Shown: positions 14,621 to 64,000 of the stretch, piece by piece
Position numbering within the stretch: the stretch's first letter is position 1
Layout of the letters: every line of letters begins with the position of its first letter
Assembly (NCBI GenBank): GCA_050084515.1
Contig: CM114271.1
Location: 10,850,001-10,914,000 of the forward strand
Reading direction: 5' to 3'
Source of the DNA: Blasia pusilla
Taxonomy: Eukaryota
DNA length: 64,000 nt
Translations under genes and position numbers: made by a program
The notes under the pieces: generated by a model
Seen by the model: the letters and a program-made list of their open reading frames with translations, nothing else
Databases searched by the model: none
What the model was told of the DNA's origin: nothing

Positions 14621-14638
14621 AGCTCTTCGTCTCGGCTC

Positions 14639-28715: not shown

Positions 28716-28741
28716 AAATGTGAGCCGCCCTGGAGAACACT

Positions 28742-36979: not shown

Positions 36980-36997
36980 TCCCCGGTAGCGGCACCA
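36980..36997 (-). other. Primer binding site (tRNA-Asp-like)
   Basis: TGGTGCCGCTACCGGGGA, 17 nt inside the 5' LTR boundary; resembles the plant tRNA-Asp PBS TGGCGCCGTTGCCGGGGA. Confidence 0.75.
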
Positions 36998-37014
36998 AAA
37001 AGTTTCTTGCTATA

Positions 37015-38215
37015 TGTAATGTACAAGTGTTTCTATTTTATAGTCGATTTAGTAAGTTCAATCCTCAAGAGGATCATTGCTTGATGAAAAGAGAGTTCGG
37101 AATTACAATTATGTTGTAATAATTGTATTTAAATGTGTGTGAGTTATATTCAATGTCTTATCAATATCTTCTGATATTTCTTAGTACCAAAGGATCTTTT
37201 CTCGGTTCTCTCTAGTGGAATTGACAGCATGTTCAGGTAGATTTTCCTCTCGACATCAAGAAACCTCACAGAGATCTCAACACAGAAGCTGGCTTCTCCT
37301 ACTTTCGGAACTCAATCCGTCTCGGTAGGTTACTCTCTGTCAAACAGATTTCCTACAACTCATGTTGATTATTTCACTGATGAGAAAGGTTCTCCTGATT
37401 TACTCCTCATTCTGCAGACCCAAAAAGAATACTCAGACATAAGAATCGCACATCAGAATGAATGAATGACTGCTTTACTACTCCATCAAGAATGAGAAAG
37501 CTTCAAAGTGTATACAAGCTTGAGAGGGTACTTCTCTCTTGCTCAGACCATTCCTACAACATAAGGACTTCGTAAGAGAATGATGATAATGACTTCTGCT
37601 TTGCTTCTTAAATATTCGTTGGAGTGGAAGTGATCCTAAGATTCGAAACGTTCTTGATGAAGCTAGTGTCTCTTCACTATTTCTAACTACCTAGATCTAT
37701 GGTTCTCTTAGCTTTTCCTACGATCCCTATGAATCCGCGGTACAAAATTGTTCTAACTACCAATTTGATAACTGTTTTAACATGTGTCTAACTGTTTTAA
37801 CATGTGTCTCTTGAAATCACTGTCCTTCTTAGCTTCGCTTCGTTGGACTTCAGGAGGACGAATTACTCCATGCTTCGTTCTTATTTCCTATGCTTCGTAC
37901 TTCGTGCTTCGCGCTTCGTTAAAGAGCGAAGTACTTCGTTCTTCTTTTCTTCGTGATGCTTCGTTATGTAGCGAAGCACTTCGTAGAAAGAGCTTCGTAT
38001 ATCTTCGTTAGGCTTCGTTAAGCTTCGTTATTGCGTTTTCCTCTCCTCTAAGGCAAATCCTTGATCTTCCATCTCTCTGCCTTGTCCCAGGAGCTTCGTG
38101 ATTCACTTATTCTTCTTCATAATAATAAATAATCATAATCAAAATCATAATATACAAGAGTCTTCGTTGAATAAAAAGATATATTCTTCAAGAGTACAAA
38201 ATTGTGGGTATCACA
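37015..38215 (-). repeat. 5' LTR
   Basis: Direct repeat of 27485-28702, followed by TSD CCAAA. Confidence 0.96.
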
Positions 38216-38669
38216 CCAAACTTACGGCACTCAATCTACAATCCCTCCCATTGAGACGTACTATGCGGCAACAAGCGATGTGGTGCGGCAAATCGGCTGA
38301 TCTATCGTTTCATGGACAAAACATACCCTCAACTCTGGACATCCCGCATAGGTCTATGTCCACTAAACCCATACATCAATGATGCTCTCAGCATCAACAC
38401 GAAACCCAATATCCCAAATAACTATTTGCAGGCCTTGTATACGGGTTGCACCAACATTCTTGATGCAATCCGTCGCTCTCCGACTGGTTGCACACTCAGG
38501 CAACTCGTCGGTTTCCGACGGGTTGCACACTCGGGCAACCTGTCGCATGCGACAAGTTGCTTGGTTTCTTTGGTTTGAAATCCCTATAGTGCCCACGCTT
38601 CTCAACTTGAGGTGCAACTTTTCAAAAAATTCTCACCGTGAGCTCGGCAAGACAAAATAGTGAACTCAC

Positions 38670-40700
38670 CTGCCGCATGAAGTTTCCCCATTGTCTCATT
38701 CGTACAGTCCACCAACTCAGCCAAGAGCACAACTCTTTGTACTTCCCCTCAATCGCATGCTTCCTCCACCACCCATGAAGTTCTTCTTGGCATTCCATGG
38801 CCTATTTTAAGGTTTTGCTGTCCTTGCAACGTTGGAGTAGAGTGACATGCTCTGTCTTCTTATTCTCCTTGATGCAAGATTTGGTGTACCGGGTCACAGA
38901 CTGTTGCCAATAGAAAGCATCTAACCTTTCCCTCTCCAGTTGAACCTCTTCATCCCAAAACACTTCCCTGATAGCAATCCACCCAGGTTGTGCATTGTCC
39001 GCCATGAACCCATAAATTTCCGGAGGTGGCCTTTTGTTTTTCTTCACCACCTCCAATAAGAGTAACCAGCACATCTTCAAACTGACAACGTCTTCTGCTT
39101 TTACATCACAGACAAATATAGTTTTGAGTCCCTTCTCCACATGGTCATAAATATGAGCACCCATTTTCAACCATCCGTTCAACACTCTATAGCAAATATC
39201 AAAGCTTACCCAGCTCCAGGAAAGATCTTCTCCTTCCCTCATTTGATCTATAAGATCGAGGCCCCTCGACGGACCTCTCGTTGACATTTTGAAGACATAG
39301 GCCCTGGATCCTTCGCCTCCTTGGCCGATGAACTGCCAGCTCTGAATGAATGGAAATCTGGAGTTGGCCTTGATTCTAGCAATGGCATCCATTCCGGCTG
39401 TCTTTCCATCAAATACCTGTATTTGACGCAGAAAATTCCAGAAGCATTCAGGATCAGCGAAAAATGCGAGATTTTCCCGTAGCTGTTTCACCTTAGCAGC
39501 CGTGATCTCGCCTTGTGGAGGGATTCCAAGCAGTTGTTCACATATTTGTGATGATGTTGTTAACTTGATCACTCCGAACTTTGAACCCGGAGAGTTTCTA
39601 TAGACCTCGGCCACTTTCTTCGCCACATCCTCCTTGATGTGTCTCTGAATTGCATCGGTCACAGGATGAGTGTGGGAGCCAACATGAACTGCCAGCCTTG
39701 TGTACTCAAACGTGGAACCCAAGTCGTGGACAATGAAAAATATGTATGCAGGACACGCTCCAACGTAGAAAGGGGATGCCTGACAATGAGGACATCGATG
39801 GCCTCCCGGTGGTATGGTGGCACCGACCTCATATGGAGTTTTTGCATTCTTGGGGGGAATTGCAACGTATTGACCTACCCGTTGCGCTCTAGATACGGGC
39901 ATGCTGGACTTCTACACTCCAAGGCTCCAACGCATTGGCGGCAGAAGACAATCCAAGGACCATTTGGAATTGAAGCACTAGTCCGTTGAAGATTGCACCA
40001 TCAATGACGATCAGACTTTCTGTCCATACCCTTCAAGTGTCCTCCATCTTTCTTTTGAGCAAGAGCAGCAAGTGGAGGTAACTCAAAAATGCAATTACCA
40101 TCGTACGTGGGCGGCAGCTCGTCGACAAGAATATGCTTGAACATTTTCAAGGCCAAAGACGATAGCAAACTATTGCCTGATACTCGCAAGAGGAACGAGT
40201 AGGGGGACAAAGGGCCCGGTTGGTGTCCAACATATCCACTGAGGTTGACAACATCTGGAATGTCTTCAGGAAGTACAACATTGTTACGAGCATGTGAAGT
40301 TGGAGTCAATGCTGGATCTATTGAGCTAGGAGTTGCAAACATAGAGCTCGGTGCACTAGGAAATTCTCGACCGTCTACTTGGGAAACTAAGGAATTCAGA
40401 GGCAAGCTGTAAACTCTATATTGACCATTTGCTAGAGGTAGGAGATTCCATACTTTACTGTCTGCAATCACTAGCTGGATTATCTCACCTATTATGTCCT
40501 CCGTACCGTCCATCATAACATCCTTGGACACAAAGATGGTTCCAATTTGAAGAAGAAATCGAACTGAGAGAAAATTTTCATCCATTGGTATGAAAGACTC
40601 ATGAGCTTGCGGTCGAACTATTTTTGATTGAGGAAGGGAGGCTAGATGACTGCCACAAGTGAGCTTCACATAATTATCCATTCCCAAATGATTCCACCGG
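38670..40700 (-). pseudogene. GCM-like zinc domain + MULE-type DDE transposase exon, copy B
   Basis: DRH*WC...CVGALECRSPACP...CPHC...C...HVGSHTHP (WRKY/GCM-like); VFKMS; WVSFD (D1); FMADNAQ (D2); DAFYWQQS at the CxxH position; WLSWW..R..QWGNF|GTGAGT donor at 38670. Contains stops and a frameshift. Confidence 0.78.
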
Positions 40701-41174
40701 GTGGAGATGAGAATAAGAATAAGAATGAGAATGAGAATGTTTAATTTATAGTGCATAGAGACTCAGATTCTCTTGACAGAATTTGACTGACAAGATGAAG
40801 TTTGGTAGGTGAGATTTTCTGACATGATGGATTGAATTCTGTTGCAACCTATTGGAGTCTGATCGGTTGCAGAATTTGGGAATCAGAGATATGGGTTGCG
40901 AAGCACCCAGTTCTGTTTTTTGTTTCCATGTCCCAATGCAAGTTGGAACCCGTCGGAGTCCGTTGGGTTGGTACCCCCTTCTTGCCGATCAATGGTATTT
41001 TGAGTCGATTTTGCTAGCATCAAACACGAGACATCATTTGCATTTGCTAAGGCAACCAATTGTTGGGGATTGTCACGGGATTGTCCAACTCAGGGTAGAC
41101 CTTGTGACCCGTCGGATTGCAAGGGATTGCCTCGGAACTATGCGTTGTCGCATTGTTACCCAAGGGATAGAAAA

Positions 41175-41760
41175 TCGTGCAATCTGTCGATAATCGACGG
41201 GTTGCCCAGGTACCTTGCCTATTACCCCAAGATGAGGGAAGCAAGCAACCCGTCGGTCTCCGACGAGTTGCGCAGGTATCCCGCCTTGTTATCCCAAGAT
41301 GAGGGAAGCGTGCAACTCGTCAGCCTTTGACGGGTTGCGCAAGTGCCTCGCCTTGTGACGCTTATATGAAGAAAGCGTGCAACCCGTCGGCCTCCGACAA
41401 GTTGCACGGGTACCCCGCCTTGTTATCCCAAGATGAAGGAAGCGTGCAACCCGTCGACCTCCAACTGGTTGCGCAAGTGCCTCGCCTTGTAACGCTCACA
41501 TGAAGGAAGCGTGCAACCCGTCGGCCTCCGACGAGTTGCGCGGGTACCCCGCCTAGTTATCCCAAGACGAGGGAAGTGTGAAACCCCCCGGTCTCCGACA
41601 GGTTGCGCGGGTACCTTGTGTTCTTGCCCGAAGACGGCGGAGGCGCGTAACCTGTCGGTCTCCGACGGGTTTCCAGGATAGCTCGGCTTTTTAACCCGAG
41701 GAGAACGGATGCCTGCAACCCGCGGGAAGCATGCAACCCGTCAGAGCCGTCAGGTTGGTG
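41175..41760. repeat. 67-bp-period tandem array of the 27-bp palindrome in the divergent promoter
   Basis: GCAAC starts at 41179, 41245, 41312, 41379, 41446, 41513, 41580 and 41647. Spacers are homologous and alternate between two types. Confidence 0.9.
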
Positions 41761-42080: not shown

Positions 42081-44853
42081 ATGACGAGGAAAAAATCTCA
42101 AGCAAGCAAAGTTGGGAGCTTCACTCCCAAGTCCATGAGGACTCTTGCGTCATCATCTCCAAGACCTCGTTTGGCCAATGAGATAAGGCAGAAAGAGATC
42201 GAGGAGCGGGAAAGGGAAGCGGATATGCACAGGCAGGAGCTTCTTGAAAAACGTGTTTTGGAGGTGCTCAAAAATAGAACGTAGAGGCTGAGGCATCGCA
42301 GGCCTTGAAGAAAGGGATCGGTGAGGAAAAGCGTGAAAAGAAGCGTCTGGACGCGTTAGTGAGGAGAGCAGAATTGGGAAAAGCTCGAAGGGAAAAAGCG
42401 AATGCCATTGAAGAAAGCCAGGTCCGTCCAACCGAAAGTGTTGAGATGCACCAAAATGTCCCAGATGAAGTCCAGAGCCACAATCAATATAAAATCGGTT
42501 GAGGAAACGGCCGAAGTTCAAGTGACGGACGATGAGGTCATGAGGACCGCCAGCGTGGAGATGGTGGACATCTATGAAGAAGCACGAGAGCAGTCTTCCT
42601 CGTCTCTGAGCCCGGCGGAAGAAATCGACCTCTATCGGATCGACGAGTTTCCACTGGACTTGCCAGCAACTGTCCCAGAGCAGTTGGCGGGCCAAGATAC
42701 TGACCCAACCTTTGAGCGGGTAAGAAAAGATCTTGGATCTTTGAGTTATGTGAAGGCCTATATTTCAATTCATTGGCAATTCATTGTAGTTTATTAACTT
42801 TGTCCCCATTGTGACAGGTTGTAAAGCAGATGGCATTGATGGAGGGCCAGAACGACTCGAGAATTCCACTTTGCCGATTGCGGAAAATGGAGTACATCCG
42901 CAAAATTCAGTCTGACGAGGATATTGCGAAGCTGAAACAGTCGGCAACGACAACATCCTACGTCGACAACTTCCCTCCGTTCTATGTTCAGCCTTACGAT
43001 CAACATGGAACCCAAGCGCTAGTGACGGAGGAGGACTTGGAAACGCTTAACACATTCTAGAGGATGAGAGATCAGGAATTCAGAAGAGCAATTGAGGGGA
43101 CGGAATTCAGCTGGATGCAGAACCTCTGTTTCTTCATCTGGGATGGAAACCACAGGTTCATGGCGTGGACCCAGTTTGCAGAGGAGCGCCAAAATTCATT
43201 GGAGGCGCATTTTTGTGTGAAGGCAGTCATGCTAAATCCATACCCTCATCACATGGCGACGGTGGAAATGGCCATGCGTGCCATGAACACGTAAGTTTCC
43301 TCTTCCTTTTGTTTTTTGATTGCTGCAAACCGTCGGACTCCGACGAGTGTTTAACTAGTGGTAACAAAATATCGGATGCCTTAAAGCAACTCATTGGAGT
43401 CCGACGAGTTGCTTGACTGGCCGCTGTTTTTAGGATATTTCTGGCCGAAAATAACTGGTCGGAGTCCGACGAGTTGCTTGACTAGCCGCTGTTTTTAGGA
43501 TGTTTTTGGCCGAAAGCAACTTGTCGGAGTCCGATGAGTTGCTTGACTGGCCGCTGTTTTTAGGATGTTTTTGGCCAAAAGCAACTCGTTGGACTCGACG
43601 GGTTGCATTTTCCGCCACGGGTAGGTGATCGGAGTAGGGGAGCTTGAGTTTTGGCATCAAATTGCAGCTTTACTTGAAATTGCGCAACCTGTCGGACTCT
43701 GATGGGTTGATATGTTCACTTTTTCTGCGGAAACCACTCTCTGAATAAAAATCATCTGACAACCTGTCGGAGTCTGACGGGTTGTAACCAAGCAATCAAA
43801 AATTTGAATGCAATCCGTCGGACTCTGATGGGTTGCAATATTTAGCTCTTAGCTACCATTTCGACCATGAGGTGTAGCGACCTGTCGGAGTCCGACGGGT
43901 TGCAGAACCCATGTAGCTTGCAAAAATTCTATAGTGTGTTTGGATGTGCAGGATTATATCCAAGGGGAACATCACCCACCACTGGATCCAGGATTGCAAT
44001 TGGGTGAAGAAAGTGCTAACGACGCATCCGACACAGTACAAGGGGTTCTTGGGAGACACTCTTTTTAATGAGATGCTGGCAAAGGGGGCTCAAATAAGAA
44101 AAAAGACTTGGGCAAATACATTTATTTCCCAAGATGCAGCCGTGACAATCCTTTGTTGGTCAAAGATACAGGTCGCCAAGAAGAGCGCTTCATTGGAGCT
44201 GGAGTAGAGGGAAAACGTGTATGCGTCTGAGCATGCTAAGTTCTTCCAAGCTGCAGTATGTGCAGTTACGAAGTACATTGCAAGCAAGATGCAGCGCTAC
44301 ATCGCCATTCTCAACCCTGAACTTGGCCCCGATTTCTACAAGGAGCTGAAGGCGATAATCAAGCGCCTGCAGAAGAGGGGTGAAGATCCGCATGGTCAGA
44401 TTGGGGAGAAAGTGTTTCTCAACCGCGTCCATAGATTTGCCTTGTCTGGAATTTCGGAATTCAGGAGAATCTGACCGATGAAAATCAGTTTGGAGGACGC
44501 AGAGGCCCAAAAGAGGGCGGCACACCATCCTCCGGGTGTCTATGATCCAGTGATCTCCCACTGGTTCCGTGAATGGTCATTTTGGGACTCGTTTTGGCTT
44601 CTCTAGAAGTCCATGCTCGTGGGTGTCCAAGTGGAGCTGAAAAAAATAGAGTTTGTTCCGGAGGAAGCAAAACTGGAGAGTGCTGAAGATTTCAAACTTT
44701 GGCTTGATGACATCCAGGACAAGCCCATGAAAAACCCAGGGTTCAGGACAATGTTCAAGGATCACATCCTCCCTCACGCAGACCTGGATGAAGAAATAGA
44801 GGCAAAGAAAAGGGATTTTGCAAAGAAGAAGCGAGATCTTGAGGAGCAGGCGG
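42081..44853 (+). pseudogene. ParB/Srx-domain gene, copy 1 (exons ~42081-42719, 42818-43290, 43952-44853), truncated by a Gypsy fragment
   Basis: GT-AG introns at 42720-42817 and 43291-43951. IPLCRL...IRKI...DIAKLKQS...PPFYV...FIWDGNHRFMAW. Premature stops. Confidence 0.8.
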
Positions 44854-44854
44854 T

Positions 44855-47800
44855 TGATGCAGGAGCGAGCATTTCAGTTGCTCAAGGACAGGTTGACGTC
44901 CGTACCCATCTTGAGGAGACCGATCAGGGGGCGTCCTTTCCAATTGCACACAGATTGGAGCATGTTGGGGCTTGGAGCGGTGCTCACCTAGCATGATGAT
45001 GAGGGTAGAGAGTTTGTGGTGGCTTACGCTAGTCGCTTTCGAACAACGCCGCAGAGGCTAAGCACACTCGTATGAGGGTGAGTGCTTGGTCATGTGTGGG
45101 CTGTCGCGCATTTCAGGTGTTACTTATTTGGCAACCCCTTTACCATCATCACTGATCATCAACCACTGAAGTGGTTGATGGAGTCCGAAAAGCTTACAGG
45201 GAAGCTTGCGAGATGGGCTCTGTTATTGCAGGAGTATGATTTTCAGGTGGTACATAGACCTGGGACGCTCAACCAGGATGCAGATGGGTTGAGTCGTAAC
45301 CTATGCCCGAGTCAACGAGATGCGATTGGAGCTCAATGGCACGGAGAGAGTGATGAGGAGTCGGTGCCAAGATGGCACGCGTCAGCCTATTTAGGCATGT
45401 TGGCTATGGAGAGCCAGAGTGTGGAGACTTCGATGGCGAGGTCTAGTGGAGAGTCCTTGGATCCCGAGGCCAGTGAGGACATGACAATTGGCCGAGATAT
45501 TCATGATGATGGAGTAGTCTTGGAGTACCTTCGTACAGGCAGCCTTGCGAGCACCATGGATGCTAGAGAGCGGGATTGGATCCTACAGTGGGCCAGACGG
45601 TTCCGTTGGGAGGGGACACATGTTTTGAGGGTTTGGGAGGATGGCAGAGTACGCGTAGTGCCGCATCCTTTGCAAAGAGCACGACTAGTGCAGCATGCCC
45701 ACGAGGAGTTGGGTCACTTTGGGGTGAAGCGGACGTACAACTTGCTCCAGATTCAGTATTGGTGGCGAGGCATGCAGACTGACGTTCAGCAGTTTGTTGC
45801 CAGGTGCATGGTGTGTGATCGGGTCCGAGCATCGTTCAATGCTCCGACTCCACAGTTGCATCCGTTACCGATCATGGGCTTAGGATATAGATGGAGTTTG
45901 GATTTTGCAGGACCTTTGCCCTTGACTGAGCGTCACAGTCGTTATGTGTTGGTGATGGTCGAGCACTTCTCGAAGTGGATCAAGTTGGTTGCATTGCCTG
46001 ACAAAGCGAGTGAGGGAGTAGCTTATGCCTTCCTTGACAGAGTGTTGAGTCATTATGGCACACCAGCTGAGGTGTTGATAGACCACGGTACTGAGTTTCG
46101 CGGTGAGTTCCACGCCTTGTGTGATCAGGCGCTGATCGACCACCGCACGACTTCGCGAGATCATCCCGAGGCGGATGGATTAGCGGAGAGAGTTTTGCAG
46201 ACCGTGAAGAGGGGTTTACGCAAGTATGGCTTGCAGAGAGGTCATCTAGGAGATTGGGACCTCTAGTTGCCATGGTTGGCGATGGGATATAGATTCAGCA
46301 GGCAGGCATCCTTAGCGTCTTTTTCACCGTACTTGCTACTTTATGGTCGAGAGCCAGATTTACTTGCGGCCACTCGTCGAGATGCTGGTGAGGTGCTGGA
46401 CCTTGATGACCCAGATGTATGGGTGTGAGCATATTCTCAGAGGGCTGAGTTATTTCAGAGAGTGATGTCCATGGCGTTCGAGAACTTGGCGATTGCACAA
46501 CATCGGGATACGTTGAGGTATGCGACTATTCGGGGTGGTGGTTATCGACCAACTATCCGGAGGTTTCATCAGGGAGATTATGTCTACTTGCAGCAGACGG
46601 CACCGACGACGTTGGATGTGACTGCAAGGCGCACAATCCTGAGAGTGCGTGACATTTTGCCATCGGGTGTTCTCTTGCTGGAGGGACGCGATGGTAAGGT
46701 ATGGAGGGACCATGTGCGTAACTGTGCGCCATGTCACCTTCCTAACATTGATGGTACAATAGATCCGAGCTTAGCAGTAGTTCTTGCAGGCTTGCGTTGT
46801 ATGTTGTGTGGTTCTGCCCGTGGTGCGGCCACAATGCTAGTCTGTGATGGGTGTTCGAGAGGATGGCATATGGCATGTTTGACGCCACCTCTCACTAGGG
46901 TTCCTCAGGGACGATGGATGTGTCCCAGATGTACATAGAGTAGGTAGTTCTACATTCCAACTTGTGTCTGTGACATGGATGACAAGGAGGCGACTAACGA
47001 TGGGGCCACATGAGCACCCGGCCTTCTTGCTCTTAGTGTCCGAGAGATGTATGTCATGGTAGGTAGGGATAGATGGCTATCTGGAGTTAGAGGGACCTAA
47101 CCACCAGCTAGGGGGGCGATTGGAGATATTTTGGTACTTCTTGTCTCGTTGTTTGGATGCCATGAGTTAGCATGGGATCATGCGTGTTTGTGTGTGTGTT
47201 CGGTGACAGCGATGTGTATGCGCATGACAGCTGTCACGTCTTTTAGGATAGATCGGTGAGATCTAATAGAGTGCCTTTGTGAGTAGTGGAGGACACGCTT
47301 AGTCGGTCGCGGATGACGTGCTGAGACCCCAGGAAACCTGAGATAGCAAGTTTCCCCTTCGTTTCGGCTCATTTGGAGCCATATTGAGGAACTTACTATT
47401 TTAGGTAAGTACCATTTTGAGTATATGATCGACTTGCTATTTTTGGTAAGTGGCCCTTGACCTCCTACATCAGGTCAAGATCCAAGGAGGTGACTTGGGA
47501 GAATCGGTTACCATGGAGAGAGCTTGGGAGAGGGGATGGGTATACCTCAAGGAGAGAGAGCTTGAGAGCTCATTCTCTCGTTGTTGAACCTCTTGGCATG
47601 AGGCGGCGGAGCTATGGTACCTTGCCTTGTGAGTGTAACCCAAGCCTCTAATTAGGAGAGTGGGTTTGGTTTGACATGAGAGAGAGTGCACACCTTTGAG
47701 AGCTATGGTGTGAGATGGTGGAGAGAGAGATTGGATCTTACTTTATTGGAGATATTTTGGTACTTCTTGTCTCGTTGTTTGGATGCCATGAGTTAGCATG

Positions 47801-47870: not shown

Positions 47871-50800
47871 AACCTAGCAACAGAAGATAGAGGAGCAAGA
47901 AAGAGAAGCAGAAATGCGCAGGTAGGAGCTAGAGGCAAAGCTAGCGCTGGCGCAACTGGCCAAGCGGAACTCCGAGGTGGAGGCATCCAAGGCGATGAAG
48001 AAGAGGATTGAGGACAAGAAGAAAGAGAAGAAGTGTCAGGATGCGGCAATCAGGAGAGCTGAATTGGCGAAAGTGCAGAGGGAGAAGGCTATTGTCGTTG
48101 AAGAAGATAGTCCCGCACGTCCTACAGATAGCGTTGAAGTGGGAGACGTCTCCCCCTTGAAATCTAGCAATTCTATGAATGAGAAAATTGATGAAGGAGG
48201 AGGGGATGAGGACAACAAGTGTGGAGATGGTTGACACCTTTGAAGAAGCAGGAGAAGAATTGTCTTCTTCTTAAGCCCAGTGGAAGAAATTGACCTTTTC
48301 TGTGTGGATGAGTATCAAGTGGAGTTGCCTCCTATTGTCCTAAAGCTATTGGCCGGCCTTGACACTCAACCAATTTTTGAAAGGGTAAGCAGTCTTCATA
48401 ATTTCTTATGGAGCTTCCGAGATCCTTACTTAGAAGAAAATTGCAGGACATTCTCAAAATTCTTGTAGGTTGTTGAGCAGATGGTAGTGTCGATGGCCAC
48501 AAGGCCCCTAGCATTCCTCTTTTTTGACTTCGGACAATGGAATACGTGCATGAAATTTAGTTGGAAGAAGACATAGAAAAGTTGAAGCAGTCATATGCAA
48601 TAGCTTCTTACGTCGACAACTTCCCTCCGTTCTATGTTCAGCCTTATGATGAACATGGAATGTTGTCCCAAGTCACTGAAGAAGATCTGGAGAATCTGGA
48701 TACATTTTGGAGAATTAGGGATGCGGAGTTGAGAAAACCGATTGAAGGAACACAATTTAGTTGGATGCGGAGTTTGAATTTTCATATCTGGGATGGGAAC
48801 CACAAGTTAATGGCGTGGTTTAGTTTGTAGAGGAGCGCCCAAATTCATTGGAGGCGCATTTCTGCGTGAGGGCACTCGTCCTCAATCTCTTTCCCCATCA
48901 CATGGTGACAATGGAGATGGCTATGCACTCCATGAACACGTGAGTATTTCCCATTCTCTTTCATATTTTTCTACTTGCTCCAACCCATTGGATTCTGACG
49001 GGTTGCTCTAATGTCCATAAGAAAGAATGTCTGAAAGTATAGAAGACGATATCAGCAACCCGTCGGAGTCTAATGGATTGCATCTAGGGTCCTGTGACTT
49101 CTTTACTAGACCATCCTATAACCCCTTGTAGTCCGACGGGTTGCAAGATGGTTAAAGTTGTAGCGAGATTTCAAGATGAAATGAGTGTTCTGCAACAATT
49201 TGGAGTCCGACGGGTTGCAGATGGTCAAAGTTGTAGCCAAGTTTCAGGATGAAACAAGTGTTATGCAACTCGTCGGAGTCCAATGGGTTGTAGAATAGTC
49301 TAGTGAAGAAGTCAAGGAAGCCCTAAATGCAACCCATCAGACTCCGACGGGTTGCAAGCAACTTTTTTTACGCTTATTTGTAGGAATCCGATCGTGTGAA
49401 TTGCGCTTATGGGGCTTGCTTGCAACCCATCGAACTCCCACCAGTTGCATTGATTTGCAACCCATCAAACTCCAACGGGTTGGCGCAACTATAATGTGAA
49501 CCTATCTTAGCGGCAATCTCGAGGATTTGTCGCAACCCGTCAGAGTTCGACGGGTTGCACATCGATGCCATCGGCCTAGAGTGGTGCAACCCGTCGGAGT
49601 CCGACGCGTTGCACTTAGTTTCAGACATACTTTCTTCTTTGATCTTGTGTGCAACATGTTGAAATCCGACGGGTTGCAGGAGATTAAAATTCTCACTTTG
49701 GATTGATGATTGCAAGATTGTCTTGGAGGGGAACGTCACCCATCTCTGGATCCAAGAATGCAACAGAGTGAAGAAGGTTCTTACAATGTACCCATTGCAG
49801 TACGAAGAATTCCTAGGAGAGGACTTAGTGGATGAGATGCTCGCCAAGGGAGCACAGATCTAAAAGAAGACTTGGGCACATACATACATCTTCCAAGATG
49901 CATCTGTCACCATTCTATGCTGTTCGAAATCCAGGCAGCAAAGAAAAGCGCCACACTGGAGCTGGAGCAAAGGGAGAACATTTCAGCGTCGGAGCGAGCT
50001 AAGTTCATCTTTGCTGCAGTGTCAATAGCCACAAAGTACACTGCGAGCAAATTGCAACGTTATATAGCTGTCTTGAACCCAAAACTCGACCAAGAATTCT
50101 ACAAGGAGTTGAAGGCGATCATTAAACGCTAGTGAAAGAGGGAGGAAGATCCACATGGTCGAATCAGAGAGAAGCTTTTAGTGGATCGCGTCCACAGGTT
50201 TGCGCTCTCTGGGACTTCCAAGTTCACGCAAATGAGACTGATAAAAATCAATCTCAAGGGGATAGAGGCACAGAAGCGGGCAGCATACCACGTGCCAGGG
50301 GTATCAGACCCTCTAATCTCTCACTGGTTGAGAGAATGGTTTTTCTCAGATGCATTGCAGCTGCTTAGGAAGTCCATGATCACATGTCTTCAAGTTGAGC
50401 TCAAGAAGATTGAGCATGTTTTGCAGGAGGTCATCTTAGAGGCTGTTGAGGATTACGAACTTTAGCTAGATGACATGCGTGGTAAGCCACCGAAAAACCC
50501 CGGCTTCACAACGATGTTCAAAAATCATATCCTGCCACAAGCGGATCTTGACAAGGAAATTGGCAATGCAAAAAAATGGGATTTCGCAAAGAAGAAGAGG
50601 GATCTTCAAGAAAAAGCGGCCAAGTCCTCCCGACAACAAGCTACCCAACGGATTGTATATAGGTTCCTCATCTCCTTTGTGAATGCAAGTACCTGGAGCA
50701 AATATCCCGCAACATGCAAATTGTGGGCTTCTCCTCAAGATGGAGAAGGATTCTTCATGTACGACATGAAGATGGGGGAGGATATGAGTGATTGGGAAGT

Positions 50801-53097
50801 GTTGAATTGTCCAATTTGGTTAGACTTCAACAACCCTGAAGACATGACCAACAAGAACTTGCGAGTGGTGTATGATGCACTCGTATTTGGAAGGGACGAC
50901 ATCCACAACCTGTTGGAGGTTGAGAAATATTTTGAAGGAGATGTCGAGGAGCAAGCCATCCAGACCATCGAGTTGGTGTCCAAGGTAGTAATAGCCAAGG
51001 ATAAATCCACAACGGGCTTGAAAGTGAAGGCGAAGGGGTCGAGGCTTTCAGAGGCAAAATCCTCAAGATGGATTCGGGAAAAGGGACAAACAAGGGAGTC
51101 GTCCAAAAAGATGCTTGTAGAGTCCGAAGATAGTGAGACACCTATAAGTAGGCAGCAAACTTGCAAGAAGCAAAAGTGGGAGGCACCTGGATCCTCCAAG
51201 AGAGATAATAAGTATGTGAAATACACTCTACCATCCTTAGGCAGACATAGGGACACTACGAGCATGATCACTATCCTTCTCTACTAGACTTTTCTCCTTG
51301 ATTAACTGCAGAGTTTTTCTAGTCAGTAGTCCACCGTTGCAATCGAGAAGCTGGCCATTTTAGAAGGAAAGCTTCTTTGAAATGGGCATGGCCCATGGAC
51401 TGTCCACGGGGAAGCTAAGAAGGTGGCGATGGATCTCCTAATAGAAAATTTTCCTTTGGGATTCCGATTGTGGGACGACAATCCCTCAGACATTATCTCG
51501 GATTGGAATGCCCCACTTACTTATGACCAGATTGCTCTTTTGTTTTCTTTCGTGCACGCATGTCTGAGTGACAAGGGGTGTTTCTTGGTACTGATTGGAG
51601 GGAGTGAAGACGAGCTCTTCAGCCTCGAGTGCGTGAAGAGATGTCTCAAGTGGCGTATGGCACAATCTTAGTCGATAAAAAATGAACACCCACTCAGATC
51701 TGCATCAAATCAACTCTTTCAATGCTATTTTCTTTTTCAATGTTTTTTTTTTTTTTTCAGAAAACTGCAAGAAAAAAGTCCTTGTTTTAGCCTCTTGGTT
51801 CAAACAAGCAACCCATCGGATTTGGAGGGTTGCGGGAATTCTATTGTGAGATGAAGTGGAATCTGTCTCACAGTGACGGGTTGCATTTCGAGCCAGAAAA
51901 CTAGATTTGCAACCCGTCAAAACCCAACGGGTCGCAACTAGAATTTTGTCTAAGTTGATGAGCAACCCATCAGGATCCAACGGGTTGCAACTAGAATATT
52001 TTCTCAACTGATGAGCAACCCATTGAAATCTAACGGGCTACAAATAGATCTTTTTCTAAGCTCATGAGAAACCCGTCGGAATTCAACGGGTTGCAACTAT
52101 AATTTTGTCTCAACTGATAAGCAACCCGTCAGAATCCGACGGGTTGCAACTATAATTTTGTCCAAGTTGTACAGCAACCTGTGGGTTTCCGACGGGTTGC
52201 ATGCTTCTTCCACCATAAATCTGACATCATTTTGCACCTGTCTTGTGCATAGATTGAGCATTCTTATGTCTACTATTTTGTTAGATCGGAGCACAATTTC
52301 CAAGTGTTTCAAATCCATTAGATCCATGCTCCAATGGGTTCACATTGGATAGCCTCTATAATTCCCTACCCCTCGGCAGGAATTTTCATGCTAGAAGGTA
52401 CAAATGTGCTTGGAGGAAGGGAGAAGTCACTGGCGCTGATGTAGACGCTCATGGAGCTCTACTCAAGACCGGGTGACTTGGTCTTGGACTTGGTTGGCTT
52501 ATCAGGGGCGAGTATCAGAGGCTCGTGAAAGAATGGAAGGAATATTCTCTTCCTTGAGGGAAGGATGGAACTATTCGACCTTTGCAAGGACGCAAAGGGG
52601 GACTACAAAAGGCTGGTGGGAGTCTACAACTCGCCTCCAAAGTAAATTGCACTTGCAGCAAAGCCAATGGTAGTGACACCATCGTTACTTCCTGTTATTC
52701 GGAGAATCGGGAAGACAAGGCCGACAGTCATTTTGGAAGAGCTCTCGAATGATGATGAGTGAGTTCAATCGATTCATCAGGTTCAATCGATTCAAGCGTT
52801 TTGGAGTTGGGATTTAGTGCTTTCAAGCGGCCGAGCACCTATTGATACTCGATGGGTGTTACTTTGCAGAGCATACAAGATATATTGCCGAGAAAACGTT
52901 GGGAACTCTCTCATGATACATGGGACCAATATGGTGCATCTAGGGGGGCAAGGCTTTCGAATTTCCCTACATTCTCAATCCCCATCTACAATCGGGCACA
53001 TGAGCTAGTTGTATCTGCAGAGATTTCTATTGTACAGGAACCGAGGAGAGTTAGGAGTAAATTTGTAGATGACAAGGCAGAAGAACTCATAGACTAG
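47870..53097 (+). pseudogene. ParB/Srx + beta-class DNA amino-methyltransferase-like gene, copy 2 (nearly complete, 4 exons)
   Basis: IWDGNHK (48792-48806); MDLLIENFPLG...WN...LSDKGCFLV (~51430-51590); GGREKSLALM*TLMELYSRPGDLVLDLVGLSGAS..S*KNGRNILFLE (~52413-52558). Palindrome-filled introns at ~48940-49715 and ~51711-52250. Ends FVDDKAEELID*. Confidence 0.78.
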
Positions 53098-54804
53098 AGT
53101 TTCTAGTTTAGGTAATCAAATGTAAATTTTTGAGTTGCGATCAGATTATGATAAAGGACTTCCATTTTTTTTACATTCTTGTAATGTTTTCGGACTTTTG
53201 GTGCTTTTGTGTCTGGTCTCTTCTAGTCTCTCATGGACAGTCTTTATTTTGCAACCAGTCGGATTCTGACGGGTTGCATATTTTATCAGGGATTTTTTTT
53301 GGAAGGGGTGGCTTTAGGACTTGTTTAAACTTGTGAAAGAGGTCTTTGGTTACCTCTTATGATTGCTTCAATGAGGTCTACTAGCTTGCAACCCGTTGGA
53401 TTCTGACGGGTTGCAAACCAAAGACAATGTTTGCAACCTGTCGGATTCTGAAAGGTTGTAAGAGGAAACATTTGTTTTTCTTTTCTTTTTATTTGTTCCC
53501 CTTGGGAGTTCTCTATAAACTTTTCCTCTCTTGCAACCTGTCCGATTCCAATGGGTTGCAGGTTTGATTGGGTTTGTGTTTCCTAACATTAATTCATATG
53601 ACCCCCGATGATATCTTTCTCATACCTTTTGGCCTATACCCTGTCTTGCAACCTGTAGAATTTCATCAGGTTGCACGTCTAGGTGATTTGAGTTTCTCTC
53701 TGTTTTTTGTAATCTTTGATCTGAACCATAGTGTTACTTATCGTATCTACACATACGACTGGTTGTTATAGAATATTTGGTATAGGTTGTTATCGGCTAT
53801 TTTTTTCTCTCACCTCTGATCAGAATGGAAGCTTTGGGTTTCTTTTCATATCTTCATTTGTAGATCGAATAACTTCCTGGACGAAGTGTCGAGAATGAGG
53901 TTGGGAGTCTCAAATAAAGTGTCCAAAATCTGTCGAGGTTGCTCTTAGTGTTTCAAGTAACGTCTTCTTTTTTTTAACCCCTTTTTCTTTCATCCCGTCA
54001 CGCAACATGTCAGATTCCAAGTGGTTACATTTCAGGTTAATAGGCTTCTATTCGTTTCATTATCTGTGGTTTTTGTTCTTCATTTGGTGCTTCTACATTT
54101 TTTCACTTTTGACGTTCTCCAACCTGGTGGATTCTGACAGGTTGGCTACTTGATTGAATCTCTTTTCCTCTGAGTCTATCCTTTTAAGCACTTTGGCAAG
54201 CTTCCTTCACTTTCCTTTCGTTTCCCCATAATCTTCAAACCATTCTTCTCTAAGACATAATTTTCTGAGAGGTTGCACGCTTCCCCTTTGTGATTCCCTT
54301 GTAGGAATGAATTCTTAACTCTGTTTATTCTTCGCAACTCCCGGCAAGAGTTCTCATTTCCTTCATTGTGTTGGCTTCCTTCACTTCTAAGATTTGTGTT
54401 TAACCACACTTGCCTAACACCCATCAACTTAATAAAGAACTTTATATTGCCATTACTCCTTAATACTTAGACCGTCATGACTCGGTGTTAAATTTTCACA
54501 AAGTAGTGGGTATGAGGGTGGGAGCCTTGGATTAAGAGCCCATTATCTTTTCATCTATTGAGTAGTCTAACCCTTAAGTGCACTGTAGCCACTCGTATTT
54601 TAAAACATAAGGATGCAATATCTTCTATTAACACCATAGTATGAGTGATGTAAGCATGTCTGGAGTGGTCTTTGTATGTCTATTTTCAGATCCAAGCCAA
54701 GAAAGACGATGTTAGTTTTGGCCCCAATATGGTCCACTTCTTACTATCTTCTAAACATTTCTTACATTTGAAGGAGAGGAAAAAATAAGGTATGTCAGGA
54801 AGTT

Positions 54805-58449: not shown

Positions 58450-59124
58450 TTAAAGTTTAGTGAGAATGTAGATGTCCGTTTCTGCGTATTCGTCCTCTGG
58501 ATGGAATTCCCTACGATCGACGTTCTTGATGGAAAAGTACTGGGGAAGTAGACGCCAGAACAGAGCGTGCGCATCCGGGTCTCGTTGCTGGTAAGCGAGG
58601 AGGATGCGAGTATCAGAATTTGAGAGGTCCCCTAGAGCTGTAATGAGGGGCATGACGATGGAGTCCACATACACTACATCGGCTGCAATCAACACATCGA
58701 AAGGAGGCTTTACAGCTGCAGTTTGCTTCACATTGCCCCAGCACAACTGCGCGGTCTTCACCTTCCCAGCGGTGCAACCTCTGTTCCCTGCATCAGCCAG
58801 GGACGTAGCCGCCACATTACGCTTCACGTTTCGTTTCAATGCACCCATTACTGCTTGAATGTCGGTAAGCACCACATTTAGGCCCAAAAGCGCTGCCCCG
58901 AGACCTGCCGCTCCACAACCAGCTCCAATCTCTAGCCCTCGCCGGCCCTGCAGCTCCGGAGCAGATCCGCTACCTTCGCGAGCACAACGATCAAGCCACC
59001 GAACAAGAGCTAATGAACCCCGCCATACCGTAGTGCCTACTTCAAACGAGCTATTGTCCTGTTCGATCCGTAGCTTCTCCCCATTTGCGATCAATTCCAC
59101 CACAGGCCACTCCCCATAACCCAT
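58450..59124 (-). CDS. Methyltransf_16-family (METTL21-like) protein-lysine N-methyltransferase, intronless host gene, similar to Arabidopsis At5g44170
   Basis: Intact 224-aa ORF from the ATG at 59124: IEQDNSSFEVGTTVW, LEIGAGCG (motif I), VVLTD, LCWG, FDVLIAADVVY (DxxY), LAYQQRDP, EYAETDIY. Confidence 0.92.
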   Translation of the reverse strand: MGYGEWPVVELIANGEKLRIEQDNSSFEVGTTVWRGSLALVRWLDRCAREGSGSAPELQGRRGLEIGAGCGAAGLGAALLGLNVVLTDIQAVMGALKRNVKRNVAATSLADAGNRGCTAGKVKTAQLCWGNVKQTAAVKPPFDVLIAADVVYVDSIVMPLITALGDLSNSDTRILLAYQQRDPDAHALFWRLLPQYFSIKNVDRREFHPEDEYAETDIYILTKL

Positions 59125-60700
59125 TGCAGAACCCAACACAGCACTAGTGTTTCACTTATTGCTATGGTTCAGTAAGTTCTTCCTGGGACCATTCTCCGAA
59201 GAACCCGACAAGATAACCAGTATGTGATTTTGACTTTCTTAAAGAGAGTTCGGAGTCCGGAGACACTAATACTGCCGGGGGAAGAGGGTTCGGAGGGAAG
59301 AGAGTAACGCTCCGGCAGAGCCGCCACGAGAAAAGAGACGGGGAAAAACATGACTAGAACAAAAATAACTTGCAGCCTCTGCACTCAAACTCGACTATGT
59401 GTAGGGGTTGTAACTAACTTGCACCCTCTACCTAAACTCGCTGGCCGACTCCTAGTGAGTCCGTGTTACCACAAGTTCACAACTGGCCACTCTCCTCCTT
59501 TTCTAAATTGGTATTTTGGCAAGAAAGTCTCTCTTAAAAAAATGGCAGAATCCGTCTCCTATCTTCAAAACATTTTGAAATTTTTGTTTGCTTTCAAATT
59601 CATAAAATCTTTAGAAGAGAGTAGCAAGTGGACTACATTTGGGCCTAAACTAACCTTCTTTTTCCGGGCTTGGAAAGAGAAGTAGACATCATAACACCAT
59701 TGCAAACATCCTTCCATCTTTCTCCATGTGAGCTCAATTTTCTTCACATTGCCTGTCTAACCCAACTCTACAGTAAGCCGGGCTGAGGGGTATTATTGTT
59801 GGAGGACCATCGGCAGATAATTTGGCGAGTACAAACAATTTCATCAAAATGAAAGGTTTTAATAAAGACTCTGACTATGGTGTCAATAGACTCTTGTGCC
59901 CTTCAGGGTTCAACTTCTCAAAAGATGTGGTTGAGATGGGATTTTCTACAACAGAACAAAACACTAATCACTGCGCATTTATCGAAAAATTTCATGAGAA
60001 TCTTGGATGATGTTGGCTCATAAATGGGTGCATGAATTCGACCATGGATTGCTGTGTGTTTGACTACTTGGTTTTACCATTCTCTCAACCACTAAGAAAT
60101 GTATGCATCAAGAAGATAACGTGCAAGGACCAAGAGGACAATTGAAGCAACATGTTGGTAGCCGTCAGGAGTGCAGAGGAACTGATATGCACCCAAGTCC
60201 ATTCATTCAGACATGCAATCCGTCAAAATCTGACAAGTTGCATCCCTTGCAACATTTCGGCATCAACCCACAGGTTGCAACTCCTGCAACGCGTCGGAAT
60301 CCGACGAGTTGCAAGATACGGGACACTCCACATAAGCCAATTCTAATCTTCAGTTGGAGTGGTTCTCAACCTTTTGGAATTGGACGGGTTACCAACCTCT
60401 CAAACTGAAGGTTAGAGTCTAGGAAAGCAAGCGTACCACACCAAGAGAATTGAAGGTTACAAATTGGTGTTAGTACAGTGAAAAGACATCATGCAAAATG
60501 TATATGTGAGAAGACATCAGGCAACCCGTCGGTTTTTGACAGATTGTAAAAGCAGAAAAAGCCTCATCCCAATCTCGGACTGTGATCGAAAATAGCATCA
60601 GACCAAAAGCGTGAAGAGAATTGGGTGCATTTAAAAATCCACTTTATTTAAAACCGTTTGCGAATCAGTTATTTACATCTGATTTCCTTAACAAGAAAAT

Positions 60701-63700
60701 CTAGTCTATGATCTCTTCAGCCTCGTCATCTACAAAAATGTTCCTAACTCTTGCCGGTTCCTCTACAAGAGACTTCTTAGGGCTAGTCAGTGGCTCCTCT
60801 GCAGGATTGTAGATTGGAAGTGAGAAGGAAGGAGGATTTGAGAGCCTTGTCCCCCTAGAAACAACGTATCAGTCCCATGTTACCTCCAAAGAGTCCCAAC
60901 GCATGCCCCGATAGTTGATTTTAAAGCTTCTGCAAATGGAGACCCATTGATATCAATGTTTGCTCCTTCCCCGAGAACCAGCACATCTCAACTCCAAAAT
61001 GCTTCAAATCCAAGGCACCTACACTCACTCGTTATCATGCGACGGCTCCTCCAGACAAGCCGCTGGCCTTGCCCTTTCTATTTTGGGGATCATCTGTAGT
61101 GAGGATGGAGTCACAACCAGTGGCTCCAACGCAGGTTCTTTTGTCCATGCAGGCGACTTTTAAACAACAATCACCCTCTCATAGTCTGACTTTGCCTCCC
61201 GGAAAAGTGCAAACAAGGTGTTCCTAGACTCAAGGCAGAGAATGTTTCGGCCACTCTGCCAAGCAGCTCTCACACTTGCCCCAGGAAGACCCACCAAATC
61301 GAGCACCAAATCACCGGCCTTAAACACATCTCCATGAGGGTCTGTAGGAGTGCGGGTGATTTTTCCCTCCCTCCAAGCACTAGCACCCCTTCCTCGACGA
61401 CGATTCGTGGGTGTGAATTGGACAGATTGTTCAGAGTGTATCCATCTAAACCTCAAAAGACTCAAACCTGTGCTTTGTTCTGACAAAAAAATACACATAA
61501 GAGTATTTGATTTGCAAAAAACACATGTAAAAGTCAGCTAAGAATCGGTGGGAGGAATAGATCTTCCAAGAGCAACCCGATGGAATCCGACGGGTTGCAA
61601 ATGAAAGATATCACCAAGGAAATTCGCTCTAAGGGGGCCCTGAGCATTCAGACACTTTTCCCACCAACCGTGGATGCCCAAAAGGTTGCCCATATGCAAT
61701 CCGTCAGAATCCGACGGGTTGCTCGACACACCCCAGAACCCGACGAGTAGGTGCTACAACCCGTCTGACTCAGACAGGTTGCAGCAAGGCCTATAAGGGA
61801 GGGTGATGACCAACTCCCTTTTTGGGCTGTGTTTTGCAACCCGTCGGAGTTCGATGGGTTGCAGGAAAAAATGAAAACATTTGTAGCAAGAAAAGAAATA
61901 TGAATCATGAGTTATGGAACTTACCAAGACTTGGTTTGAAGTCGACCTTATTGGGTAGTCGTTCTTCACAACCAAAGACTGCACTGTTTGCCACTTCAAC
62001 GATCGCTTCACGCACTACAAGTTAGAGCTCATCCTCGCTTCTTCCAGTTAGAACCAGGAAACATCCCGTGTCACTAAGATATGCGTTGGCAAAGGAGAAC
62101 ATCAACGCGATCTGGTCATATGTGAATGGGGTGTTTCAATCCGGGACTATGTCGCGTGGGTTTTCTGCCCACAAATCTGAGCCCCAACGGTAGATTTACG
62201 ATGAGGAGGTCAACTACAACCTCCTCACGTACCCCATTGATGGTCCATGGGGCATGGCCGCCTCGCAGAAGCTTACATCCCAACAATGTTAGCTTCTCCA
62301 AGGCAAGCGTGGACTCTTGTGATGAGAACTTCTCCAATTCTTCCAGCAACGATGTCTGATGCAGCAAGATGGTGATTTGTGATACTCCATCCTTGTGCTT
62401 CCCCGACAATGAGGGAGTGTAGACAACATTCGTGTCCCCTCCTTCAGAGAAACCGGGAGTCTCCCTTTTTTGCTTCTTGCGAGTGGGGTGCCTGCTTGTT
62501 GGGATCTCTATGACATCGAAATCCACAAGATTCGGTTTGGAGGCCTCCCGTAGCCGTCCTTCTCGCCTTGATGATCGTGCATTGCATGGTTTGGGGGCCT
62601 TAACCTTGGATTTCAACCCCGCATTGGACTTGTCTTTTGTCGTTACTGTTTTTGACAAAATCTCCGCCGCCTCAATTGCTTGTGCCTCGGCATCCCCTTC
62701 GAAGTACTCCTCTGTCTTGAAAATGTTTGGGATGTCCTCCTAGCCAACAGCTAGCGCATTATACAAGTCTCGCATTGCTGGGTCAGTGAGCTCATTGGGG
62801 TCATTGAAGTCCAACTAGATTGGTCAGTTGAGCACTTCCCAAGGACTCATCTTGTGGGCCATCTCCATGTCATACATGGAGAATCCTTCACCATCCGGAG
62901 TATCTGCCCATAGCTTGAGCGCCGCCCGAAACTTCCTCCATGTTCCTGCGTTCACACAGGAGGTCAAGAATCTGAACACCATCCTCTACGCAACTCGATG
63001 GTGGGATAAAACGACAGCTTGATCTTGATGCTCTTTCTTCTTTTTCGCGAAGTCCCGTTTCTTCGGCTCGACAATCTCCTCGTCGATATCCCCCTACGCT
63101 AGAATGTGGTTCTTGAACATCGTCTTGAACCCAGGATTCTTTGTCAACTTATCTCGGATGTCATTCAACCACAACTCAAACTCCTCCCCCGATTTGAGGC
63201 TAGCCTCCTCCGGAACCGGCTGAATTCTCTGCAGGTCGGCTTGAAGGCATTCAATCATTGACTTTCCCAGCAAGCGCAAGGCATCCCATAAGGACCACTC
63301 TCATAGCCATTGGGAGATGACTGGGTCCGACACCCCCGATGAATGGTGTGCCGATTTTTTCTTTGCCTCCGTTCCCTCTAGACTGATTTTCATCAGTCAC
63401 GTGTGTGGGGATCCTCGTCCCTCTTTCGCTGCCTCTTGATTATGGCCTTCAACTCTTTGTAGAAGTCGGGCCCGAGCTTGGGGTTGAGGACAGCGATGTA
63501 CTGCTGCATCTTCTTTGCAATGTACCTGGTCGACGCTGACACCACAACTTGAATGAACTTGGCTCTCTCAGAAGCCGAAACATTCCCTCTCTGCTCTAGC
63601 TCTAGTGTCGCGCTTCTTTTCGCCGCCTGGATTTTTGACCAGTTGAGTATTGTAACAACTGCATCTTGGGAAATGAATGTGTTGGCCCACGTCTTCTTTA

Positions 63701-63845
63701 TTTGCGCTCCTTTTGCGAGCATCTCATCCACCAACTCCTCTCCGAGGAATCCTTTGTTTTGCGACGGGTGTGTTGTAAGAACCTTCCTCACTTGGTCACA
63801 TTCCTGGATCCAGTGATGGGTAACATTCCCTTTGGACACAAAGCT
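60701..63845 (-). pseudogene. ParB/MTase-like gene, copy 3 (exons 3-4; continues beyond the window)
   Basis: Paralogous to copies 1 and 2: GNVTHHWIQEC, NPGFKTMFKNHIL, VDLLIVNLPLG, GGREKSPALLQTLMEM, GDLVLDLVGLPGASVRAAWQSGRNILCLE. Ends FVDDEAEEIID*. Palindromes in the intron (~61480-61920), at 63880-64000 and in the 3' flank 60210-60550. Confidence 0.8.
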
Positions 63846-64000
63846 GCAAACATCAAGGAGAAGTAAGAAAATTTACAACTTGCAACTTGTCAATTTTTTA
63901 CGGGTTGGAAGTAGACGAACAAAATGACAGCTATTGCCAACCCGTCAAAGTCCCACAGGATGCTCCAAGAGCTTTCTTGGTGCAATCCGTTGGAAACGGA

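Follow-up and report, generated by a model that had tools for sequence, protein, structure and literature searches.

Fusions of a ParB-CTPase fold with an N6_N4 methyltransferase occur in phages and prophages and are frequent in phages (bioRxiv 10.1101/2025.10.10.680097, in excerpt). The Plavaka, Mutator and Zisupton transposons of red algae carry PF01555 together with SET (PAG2) and a ParB-like domain together with a 2OG oxygenase (PAG3), and tandem inverted-repeat arrays adjoin the ParB-like gene, which the authors suggest to be binding sites of its protein (bioRxiv 10.1101/2025.02.11.637652, in excerpt). MpDN4MT1a/b of Marchantia and N4CMT of bdelloids are active eukaryotic PF01555 enzymes that cluster with prokaryotic N4-methylcytosine (4mC) enzymes. 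The MT domain of the DIRS1 retrotransposon has an amino-methyltransferase fold, is transposon-borne and was judged inactive (Iyer et al., PMC4738411, in excerpt), and the same source reports few N6A-methyltransferases in land plants. Here we analysed a 64-kb stretch of the Blasia pusilla genome (GCA_050084515.1, contig CM114271.1, positions 10,850,001 to 10,914,000 of the forward strand; hereafter the window, whose own numbering is used throughout). It is eukaryotic, plant-like and dense in transposons, and it holds three diverged copies, A, B and C, of one multi-exon gene whose predicted product ends in a degenerate, circularly permuted beta-class (PF01555-like) amino-methyltransferase fold. 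Our preferred explanation, which we regard as reasonably probable, is that these are three old dead copies of a multi-copy gene family, probably transposon-borne cargo, that encoded a non-catalytic pseudo-methyltransferase.

The closest parallel that we found is the accessory genes of the red-algal Plavaka elements, of which the present family would be a fused, degenerate land-plant analogue; the two are likened by the excerpted description only. Here both domains would lie in one protein, and in land plants, and PAG2 is recognised by Pfam whereas the present family is not. Pfam detected neither a SET nor a 2OG domain in the pieces scanned, and no Plavaka transposase was recognised in the neighbouring open reading frames (ORFs). 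As in the PAG cassette described in that excerpt, palindrome arrays accompany the gene, filling the introns and flanks of its copies. With the phage fusions (PF02195 plus PF01555) the gene shares its candidate order, a ParB-like part and then a beta-class fold, and ParB_N occurs in 55% and 29% of the members of two Atlas neighbour clusters of a fern homologue. It differs from them in being eukaryotic, in its introns and long extra middle, in the loss of the catalytic tetrad and in a putative box II arginine that varies (R/K/H), and its ParB fold is a candidate only. Like the Marchantia and bdelloid enzymes, as their excerpted accounts present them, it is of bacterial beta-class type in eukaryotes, one of them a liverwort; unlike those enzymes it is far more diverged and lacks the tetrad, a separation made without direct sequence comparison. 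No description of this land-plant family was found in the literature searched, which does not prove that none exists, and no such clade of land plants figures in the excerpted part of PMC4738411, a review of adenine methyltransferases in eukaryotes.

Self-comparison of the window by BLAST revealed the three copies, which are 65-74% identical in nucleotide sequence. Copy A (42196-44854, plus strand) is truncated at a retroelement fragment, copy B (47885-53127, plus strand) holds the methyltransferase-like domain, and copy C (63924-60671, minus strand) contains its counterpart, with the upstream part beyond the window end. A and B form a tandem and C is inverted, all within 22 kb. In copy B the domain is divided between a long exon (49669-51719, plus strand), which encodes N-terminal and middle regions and then the N-half of the domain, and exon 3 (52285-52762, plus strand), which encodes motifs X, I and II/III and the C-terminal tail. 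The long exon, with NCPIWLDF at 50805-50828, has nine in-frame stops and at least one frame change and is homologous to proteins of Riccia (P0003) and Adiantum (P0006, P0007), as judged by tblastx of B against C and by tblastn; exon 3 has four internal stops, and its terminal stop, after SNDDE in B and SHDNE in C, is common to both copies. Copy C repeats this layout on the minus strand (61022-63890; tblastx and B/C alignment), with the long exon at 63890-61925, intron 2 from 61924 to about 61480 and exon 3 reaching 61022. These translations place the methyltransferase-like domain at the C-terminal end of a much longer protein encoded by several exons.

A preliminary description of this DNA, made from the letters alone, had quoted methyltransferase motif strings for copies B and C and had proposed that an intron splits the domain. 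Translation recovered all of the strings. In copy B (plus strand) DLLIENFPLG occupies the motif IV position (51432-51461), where NFPL replaces (D/N/S)PP(Y/F/W), and is followed by the strand GCFLVLIGG (51576-51602), LKWRMAQS (51645-51668) and KNEHPLRS (51678-51701); when a profile of the family was compared with the PDB, the GCFLVLIGG segment was aligned with LVNPNGCMVIFC of 5hek. Beyond the intron come GGREKSLAL (motif X, 52412-52438), GDLVLDLVGLSGAS (motif I, 52472-52513) and GRNILFLE (motif II/III, 52535-52558). The corresponding strings of copy C (minus strand) are DLLIVNLPLG (62182-62211), GCFLVLTGR (62040-62066), GGREKSPAL (61348-61374), GDLVLDLVGLPGAS (61274-61315) and GRNILCLE (61229-61252). 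The consensus given earlier passes over two stops that interrupt the frame of B, and in C it crosses a frameshift. The intron likewise proved real. In copy B it extends from about 51720 to 52284 (plus strand; B/C DNA alignment and tandem repeats), starting near 51720 and not at the stop at 51670, as the raw ORF implies. Its donor is a canonical GTAAGT in C (61924-61919) and is destroyed in B, where it reads CAATGC; the acceptor, a polypyrimidine tract with AG at 52283-52284 in B, is kept in C, and an alternative AG at 52251-52252 may be the 3' boundary instead. Over the first 30-40 codons of exon 3, all three frames score alike (23-32) against the fern protein.

We then compared the domain with known methyltransferases by profile and structure. 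Copy B exon 3 matched PF01555 with an E-value of 0.0043 at the expected end of the profile (positions 165-218 of 221), and its 17.4 bits lie under the gathering cut-off of 26.7 bits, so that by its score it is not a PF01555 member in the Pfam sense; the 53-aa piece of copy C gave no PF01555 match. Four of the four PHROG families listed for exon 3 of B are named (DNA) methyltransferase (best E 2e-4), and in the PDB it matched the beta-class enzymes M1.HpyAVI (E 0.0026) and M.RsrI (E 0.21), through the entries 5hek, 5hfj and 1eg2. A family domain alignment (A3), composed of the fern and liverwort parts and the window pieces, again placed beta-class enzymes at the top of the PDB. A second profile (A5) combined ten genuine PF01555 enzymes, namely E. 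coli YhdJ and nine from phages, and hhalign aligned the C-half of A3 to its positions 191-248, a stretch of 58 columns with motifs X, I and II/III, at a probability of 91.2% and E 1e-6. The C-half alone shows only a Rossmann motif of the S-adenosylmethionine (AdoMet) type, since E. coli PrmA, an unrelated class I methyltransferase, scores 22 bits (E 3.6e-4) on the same end of PF01555, its last 50 positions. As the case of PrmA illustrates, weak C-terminal PF01555 matches are not specific to beta-class DNA methyltransferases.

The N-half of A3 aligned with A5 over 86 columns (enzyme positions 22-114) in the DPPY register, with a score of 27.8 and E 0.0015. None of 200 column shuffles reached this score (mean 11.9, standard deviation 2.4, maximum 20.4), and the reversed alignment scored 13.4. 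In this register dLl~idfPtG falls on vD~I~~dpPYg and the following W on W; lsDsGc~vvli falls on the next strand (lk~~Gsi~L~~), and a later W on iW~K. Motifs IV-VIII therefore come first, then the target-recognition part, and motifs X, I and II/III are C-terminal, which is the permuted order. Because the protein ends about 65 residues past motif III, strands 4-7 must lie N-terminal. An Atlas model of the fern homologue P0006 (residues 385-625) gave PF01555 clusters in all ten rows, with template-modelling (TM) scores of 0.64-0.69 and about 200 residues aligned; this match holds for the fern homologue model and not for the broken copies of the window. METTL3, MTA1, M1.HpyAVI and M.MboIIA were the top Foldseek rows for the fern-domain model. 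On these results we consider homology of the family to the PF01555 fold established, and the degenerate beta-class fold that the preliminary description had read from the motifs is supported by hhalign for both halves and by Atlas for the fern homologue. Several searches returned nothing: the N-half alone had no match in Pfam, PDB, PHROG or NCBIfam; phmmer against the PDB found no methyltransferase with either fern P0006 or the B N-half as query; NCBIfam gave nothing for nine queries; and tblastn of B exon 3 against phage records gave none at E ≤ 10, in a search space too large for a 20-bit similarity. An ankyrin reading of exon 3 was also considered and rejected, as the match to 1n0r consists of three overlapping pieces with independent E-values of 6.7-33 and no Pfam Ank match was found.

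To place the family, an exhaustive HMMER search was run with copy B 50466-51668 as query, stops read as X, against 1.84 billion representative proteins. It returned five proteins at E ≤ 0.001, three of which, P0003 (E 2.7e-11), P0006 and P0007, are collinear with the query in two regions. The other two, P0004 and P0005, are long and repetitive, match in 7-8 short stretches and were set aside. P0003 is a hypothetical protein of the liverwort Riccia sorocarpa; P0006, P0008 and P0009 are hypothetical proteins of the fern Adiantum nelumboides, in which the family is thus multi-copy (three proteins), and P0007 is one of the fern A. capillus-veneris. Among the 1.84 billion representatives searched, this one liverwort and these two ferns were the only sources of relatives, and a word-index search for longer relatives with copy C 63393-63872 found none. 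The public model of liverwort P0003 stops exactly at the start of the window's intron 2, and neither the WEGNHH segment nor the C-half is present in that of P0007; the gene models annotated for the relatives probably do not cover the whole gene.

At the (D/N/S)PP(Y/F/W) position, alignment A3 has NFPL in copy B, NLPL in copy C, DLPT in Riccia and DFPT in Adiantum. As the tetrad is missing in all relatives, its loss is ancestral, and motif I is degenerate in the liverwort and fern homologues too; the divergence was thus not produced by decay, in agreement with the preliminary description. The family tetrad may be written (D/N)(F/L)P(T/L), with the stacking aromatic residue and one proline gone. 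Motif X in the window keeps its K (REKS, compared with TQKS of M1.HpyAVI), motif I reads VLDLVGL(S/P)GAS in place of VLDPFxGSGTT, with D and one G kept and the first G of GSG changed to L, and motif II/III keeps R-N and the strand-end E (L(F/C)LE). Cofactor binding is therefore conceivable in the window lineage, on the strength of the K, D, G-x-x-G remnant, R-N and E that it keeps. Ferns lost even these residues: their motif I is more degenerate (EMGCSTAP), and their strand-2 region reads FSFDID. We know of no active amino-methyltransferase that lacks the PP-aromatic core of motif IV. With the aromatic residue and one proline of the tetrad gone, we infer that the intact protein would not methylate and that its fold may have served as a DNA- or AdoMet-binding module. 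A similar loss is seen in METTL14, which has EPPL. METTL14, the DIRS1 MT domain, as the excerpted source presents it, and the present family are alike in that the fold is kept, the catalytic motif is disrupted and a role as binding scaffold is presumed. They differ in class, METTL14 being MT-A70 and the DIRS1 domain PCIF1/TaqI-like, neither of them PF01555, and in partners and architectures.

The window copies themselves no longer encode this protein. At least 16 internal stops interrupt the aligned frames of copy B; in copy C there are at least 10, and its methyltransferase part is further broken by at least three frameshifts. B and C are pseudogenes, and all three copies in the window are dead. 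The comparison of nonsynonymous with synonymous substitution (dN/dS) between copies, which the preliminary description had recommended, pointed to purifying selection before the decay. Over 843 aligned codons of B and C, the proportion of synonymous differences (pS) is 0.69, which is saturated, and that of nonsynonymous differences (pN) is 0.25; the Nei-Gojobori dN/dS is about 0.16, a ratio that is only a bound because dS is saturated. In the stretch between motif V and motif III (195 codons), pS is 0.74 and pN 0.24. With pS saturated and pN low, most of the divergence between B and C was clearly, to judge from the codon comparison, accrued under constraint while the genes were functional, as happens in subfamilies of transposons or among old paralogues. 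A further block (52795-53097) is conserved between B and C with 47% amino-acid identity and a dN/dS of 0.53, and would be an exon or an untranslated region.

Upstream of the long exon, the N-termini of the fern proteins align by tblastn to copy A 42818-43291 and copy B 48504-48830, an exon with the string W(D/E)GNH(R/K/H). In copy A (plus strand) this exon contains IWDGNHR at 43136-43156 and one in-frame stop, and it is matched by fern P0007 (E 0.002) and fern P0008 (E 1.9e-4); in copy B (plus strand) it contains IWDGNHK at 48786-48806 and three in-frame stops, with both proteins again as queries. The long exon of copy A begins at 43872 and breaks off at about 44854, with a fragment of a long terminal repeat (LTR) retrotransposon after it, and its 43872-44854 (plus strand) is 70% identical to B 49647-50619. 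For P0008 residues 1-175, Atlas listed ParB_N, DndB and DUF1015 structural rows, with TM scores of 0.42-0.47 that are all under the naming bar, and in its feature search a ParB_N cluster scored 0.91 and fungal DUF3723 clusters 0.95 (with 181 and 178 features in common); the DUF3723 clusters make up 11 of the 30 matches. DUF3723 (PF12520) is, in the available excerpts, a conserved cargo gene of fungal Starship giant transposons; the likeness concerns language-model features of fern P0008 only and is a lead, and Pfam gave no PF12520 match at E ≤ 10 on P0003, P0006, P0007, P0008 or the window pieces. Pfam on the copy A exon gave DUF1015 only, under threshold (E 0.078). No Pfam ParB_N match, no PDB match by sequence or profile and no PHROG or NCBIfam match was found for the exon. 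The putative box II position reads DGNHR in copy A, DGNHK in copy B and EGNHH in fern P0008, its equation with box II being a reading made without a ParB alignment. When ParB_N was sought for comparison, it was found in none of ten phage records and, by Pfam, in none of four phage proteins, and E. coli K-12 gave weak matches only. The ParB-like fold of the upstream exon is a weak, model-based lead and not a result.

The copies are accompanied by a 27-nt GC-rich palindrome, GCAACCCGTCGGANTCCGACGGGTTGC, which has 47 matches in the window at up to five substitutions and none in each of 20 shuffles. Forty of the 47 lie in or beside the three gene copies, in introns or flanks. Upstream of copy A there are eight (40945-41673), seven of them at an exact spacing of 67 nt (41245-41673), next to a divergent unit at 38663-40753, and intron 1 of copy A has another eight (43325-43903). 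Intron 1 of copy B (48974-49677) contains 11, spaced by about 35-93 nt in a tandem repeat of period 73, and its intron 2 contains five, in 5.5 tandem units of 53 nt (51909-52201) with a palindrome in each; four more lie in its 3' flank (53234-53562) and four in intron 2 of copy C (61572-61862). Of the remaining seven, six closely flank the copies of a second repeat (four at 23470-23669 and two at 38465-38526), and the last (60286-60312) lies about 360 nt past the end of copy C. The arrays are often regular tandem units of 53, 67 or 73 nt. That they persist in introns of gene copies with saturated silent sites is suggestive of constraint, of continuing spread or of homogenisation. A search for terminal inverted repeats around copy B found that the 25 longest of 88 inverted-repeat pairs are almost all dispersed palindromes.

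Several other elements lie in the window. The second repeated unit occurs at 23846-25920 and 38663-40753 with 75% identity and has minus-strand ORFs of 369 aa (38805-39911) and 253 aa (40004-40762). Its long ORFs had no Pfam or PDB match; stretches such as FMADNAQPGWIAIREVF may resemble DDE (Mutator-like) transposases. The copy at 38663-40753 and gene copy A face each other head-to-head across a palindrome array. A full-length LTR retrotransposon (27484-38215, minus strand) encodes gag, a zinc knuckle, reverse transcriptase, RNase H and integrase, and its LTRs (27484-28702 and 37014-38215) are 95.9% identical. The retroelement fragment at the break of copy A (45082-46938) comprises the RNase H end, the integrase zinc finger and core, and then a PHD finger (E 5.6e-12). 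On the minus strand, 58453-59151 is an intact-looking ORF of 233 aa that matches the lysine methyltransferase family PF10294 (Methyltransf_16; E 1.2e-28); this is an exon of an ordinary host gene, unrelated to the methyltransferase-like family. Also on the minus strand, 13244-15670 is a frame of 809 codons that is interrupted by one stop, matches no Pfam family and is rich in serine and acidic residues in its second half.

Taken together, the family is probably cargo, an accessory gene, of a DNA transposon or of some comparable mobile element, and on this reading the ancestral protein consisted of an N-terminal domain, perhaps ParB/Srx, a long conserved middle and a C-terminal circularly permuted PF01555-like fold. 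A mobile origin is suggested by the transposon-rich neighbourhood, the palindromes around the copies, the second repeat beside copy A, the multiple copies in a fern and the red-algal transposons with their PF01555 and ParB-like genes. Several results weigh against this reading. Concerning the mobile element, the window showed neither terminal repeats nor target-site duplications nor a transposase that could be recognised, the neighbouring ORFs had no Pfam or PDB match, and the tandem and inverted layout also fits an ordinary decayed host gene cluster. Concerning the fold, exon 3 of B scores below the PF01555 cut-off, PrmA scores 22 bits on the same profile end, P0003, P0006, P0007 and P0008 had no Pfam family at E ≤ 10 save one irrelevant weak match, and the hhalign probability of the N-half is just 16.6%. 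The Atlas model of P0006 is low in confidence overall (predicted local distance difference test, pLDDT, 0.42), the AlphaFold model of the fern domain is poor (pLDDT 50.8), and Foldseek with that model gave no match at E ≤ 0.001 (best E 3.1e-3). VIA-align returned only generic Rossmann methyltransferases with Z 6-9, M.MboIIA and M.BceJIV (Z 6.5) being no better. The AlphaFold model of the ParB-like region is unusable (pLDDT 39.9), and the lost catalysis is deduced from motifs alone.

A rival reading is an ordinary, non-mobile, lineage-specific host family that was duplicated locally in tandem and inverted orientation and then decayed, its domain being a domesticated, inactive transfer from bacteria or phages. 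The clustering of the copies within 22 kb, with A and B in tandem and C inverted, their spliceosomal-type introns, the strong past purifying selection and the want of a transposase or terminal repeats speak for such a family. We nevertheless consider it unlikely, as all three copies are dead with synonymous sites of B and C saturated, as palindrome arrays persist in the introns of such copies, and as only five annotated relatives were found in 1.84 billion proteins despite the span from liverwort to fern, which fits repeat-masked sequences. Intact members might instead be active methyltransferases with an unusual loop (N/D-F/L-P-T/L), perhaps acting on another atom or substrate, e.g. RNA or protein. 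The window copies do keep the D, the G-x-x-G remnant, R-N and E of motifs I-III and the K of motif X, and the methyltransferase-like region was under strong past selection; with no active enzyme known to us without the PP-aromatic core, and with motif I lost in the ferns as well (EMGCSTAP), an active enzyme seems very unlikely.

Resemblance by chance, or a generic AdoMet Rossmann fold with no beta-class homology, has been largely refuted and is the least probable of these explanations. It would account for the sub-threshold Pfam score and the similar PrmA match, for the N-half that alone matched nothing in four databases, and for the designed ankyrin that heads the PDB list for B exon 3 with three overlapping weak matches. 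It does not account for two halves that are collinear in permuted order, for strands 4-7 forced to the N-terminal side by a tail of about 65 residues after motif III, or for PF01555 in ten of ten Atlas rows, and the ankyrin pieces each have independent E-values of only 6.7-33. Transposon-borne cargo with a non-catalytic methyltransferase fold remains our preferred reading. A more specific form of it, which we regard as quite unlikely, would be a mobile-element protein that joins a ParB-like clamp or binder to a dead methyltransferase fold and recognises its own 27-bp palindromes, in maintenance, copy control or escape from silencing. Such a protein would correspond, in a eukaryote, to the plasmid systems sopB/sopC or parB/parS, and would be kin in kind to red-algal PAG2/PAG3 and perhaps to DUF3723 of Starships.

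The window itself is of modest weight, since all three of its copies are dead, and a possible link of the protein to the palindrome arrays is the point of interest. The family is a variant of a known fold that Pfam does not detect, and it is probably carried as mobile-element cargo. Bacterial-type amino-methyltransferase folds are rare in land plants, and a family of this kind across liverworts and ferns, in which the catalytic loop was lost ancestrally under continued selection, suggests that the fold was put to a non-enzymatic use. If the gene is indeed cargo with its own palindrome arrays, it would extend to land plants the idea, recently put forward for red-algal Plavaka elements, of DNA transposons with ParB/methyltransferase modules of prokaryotic origin, and it would offer a directly testable protein-DNA pair.

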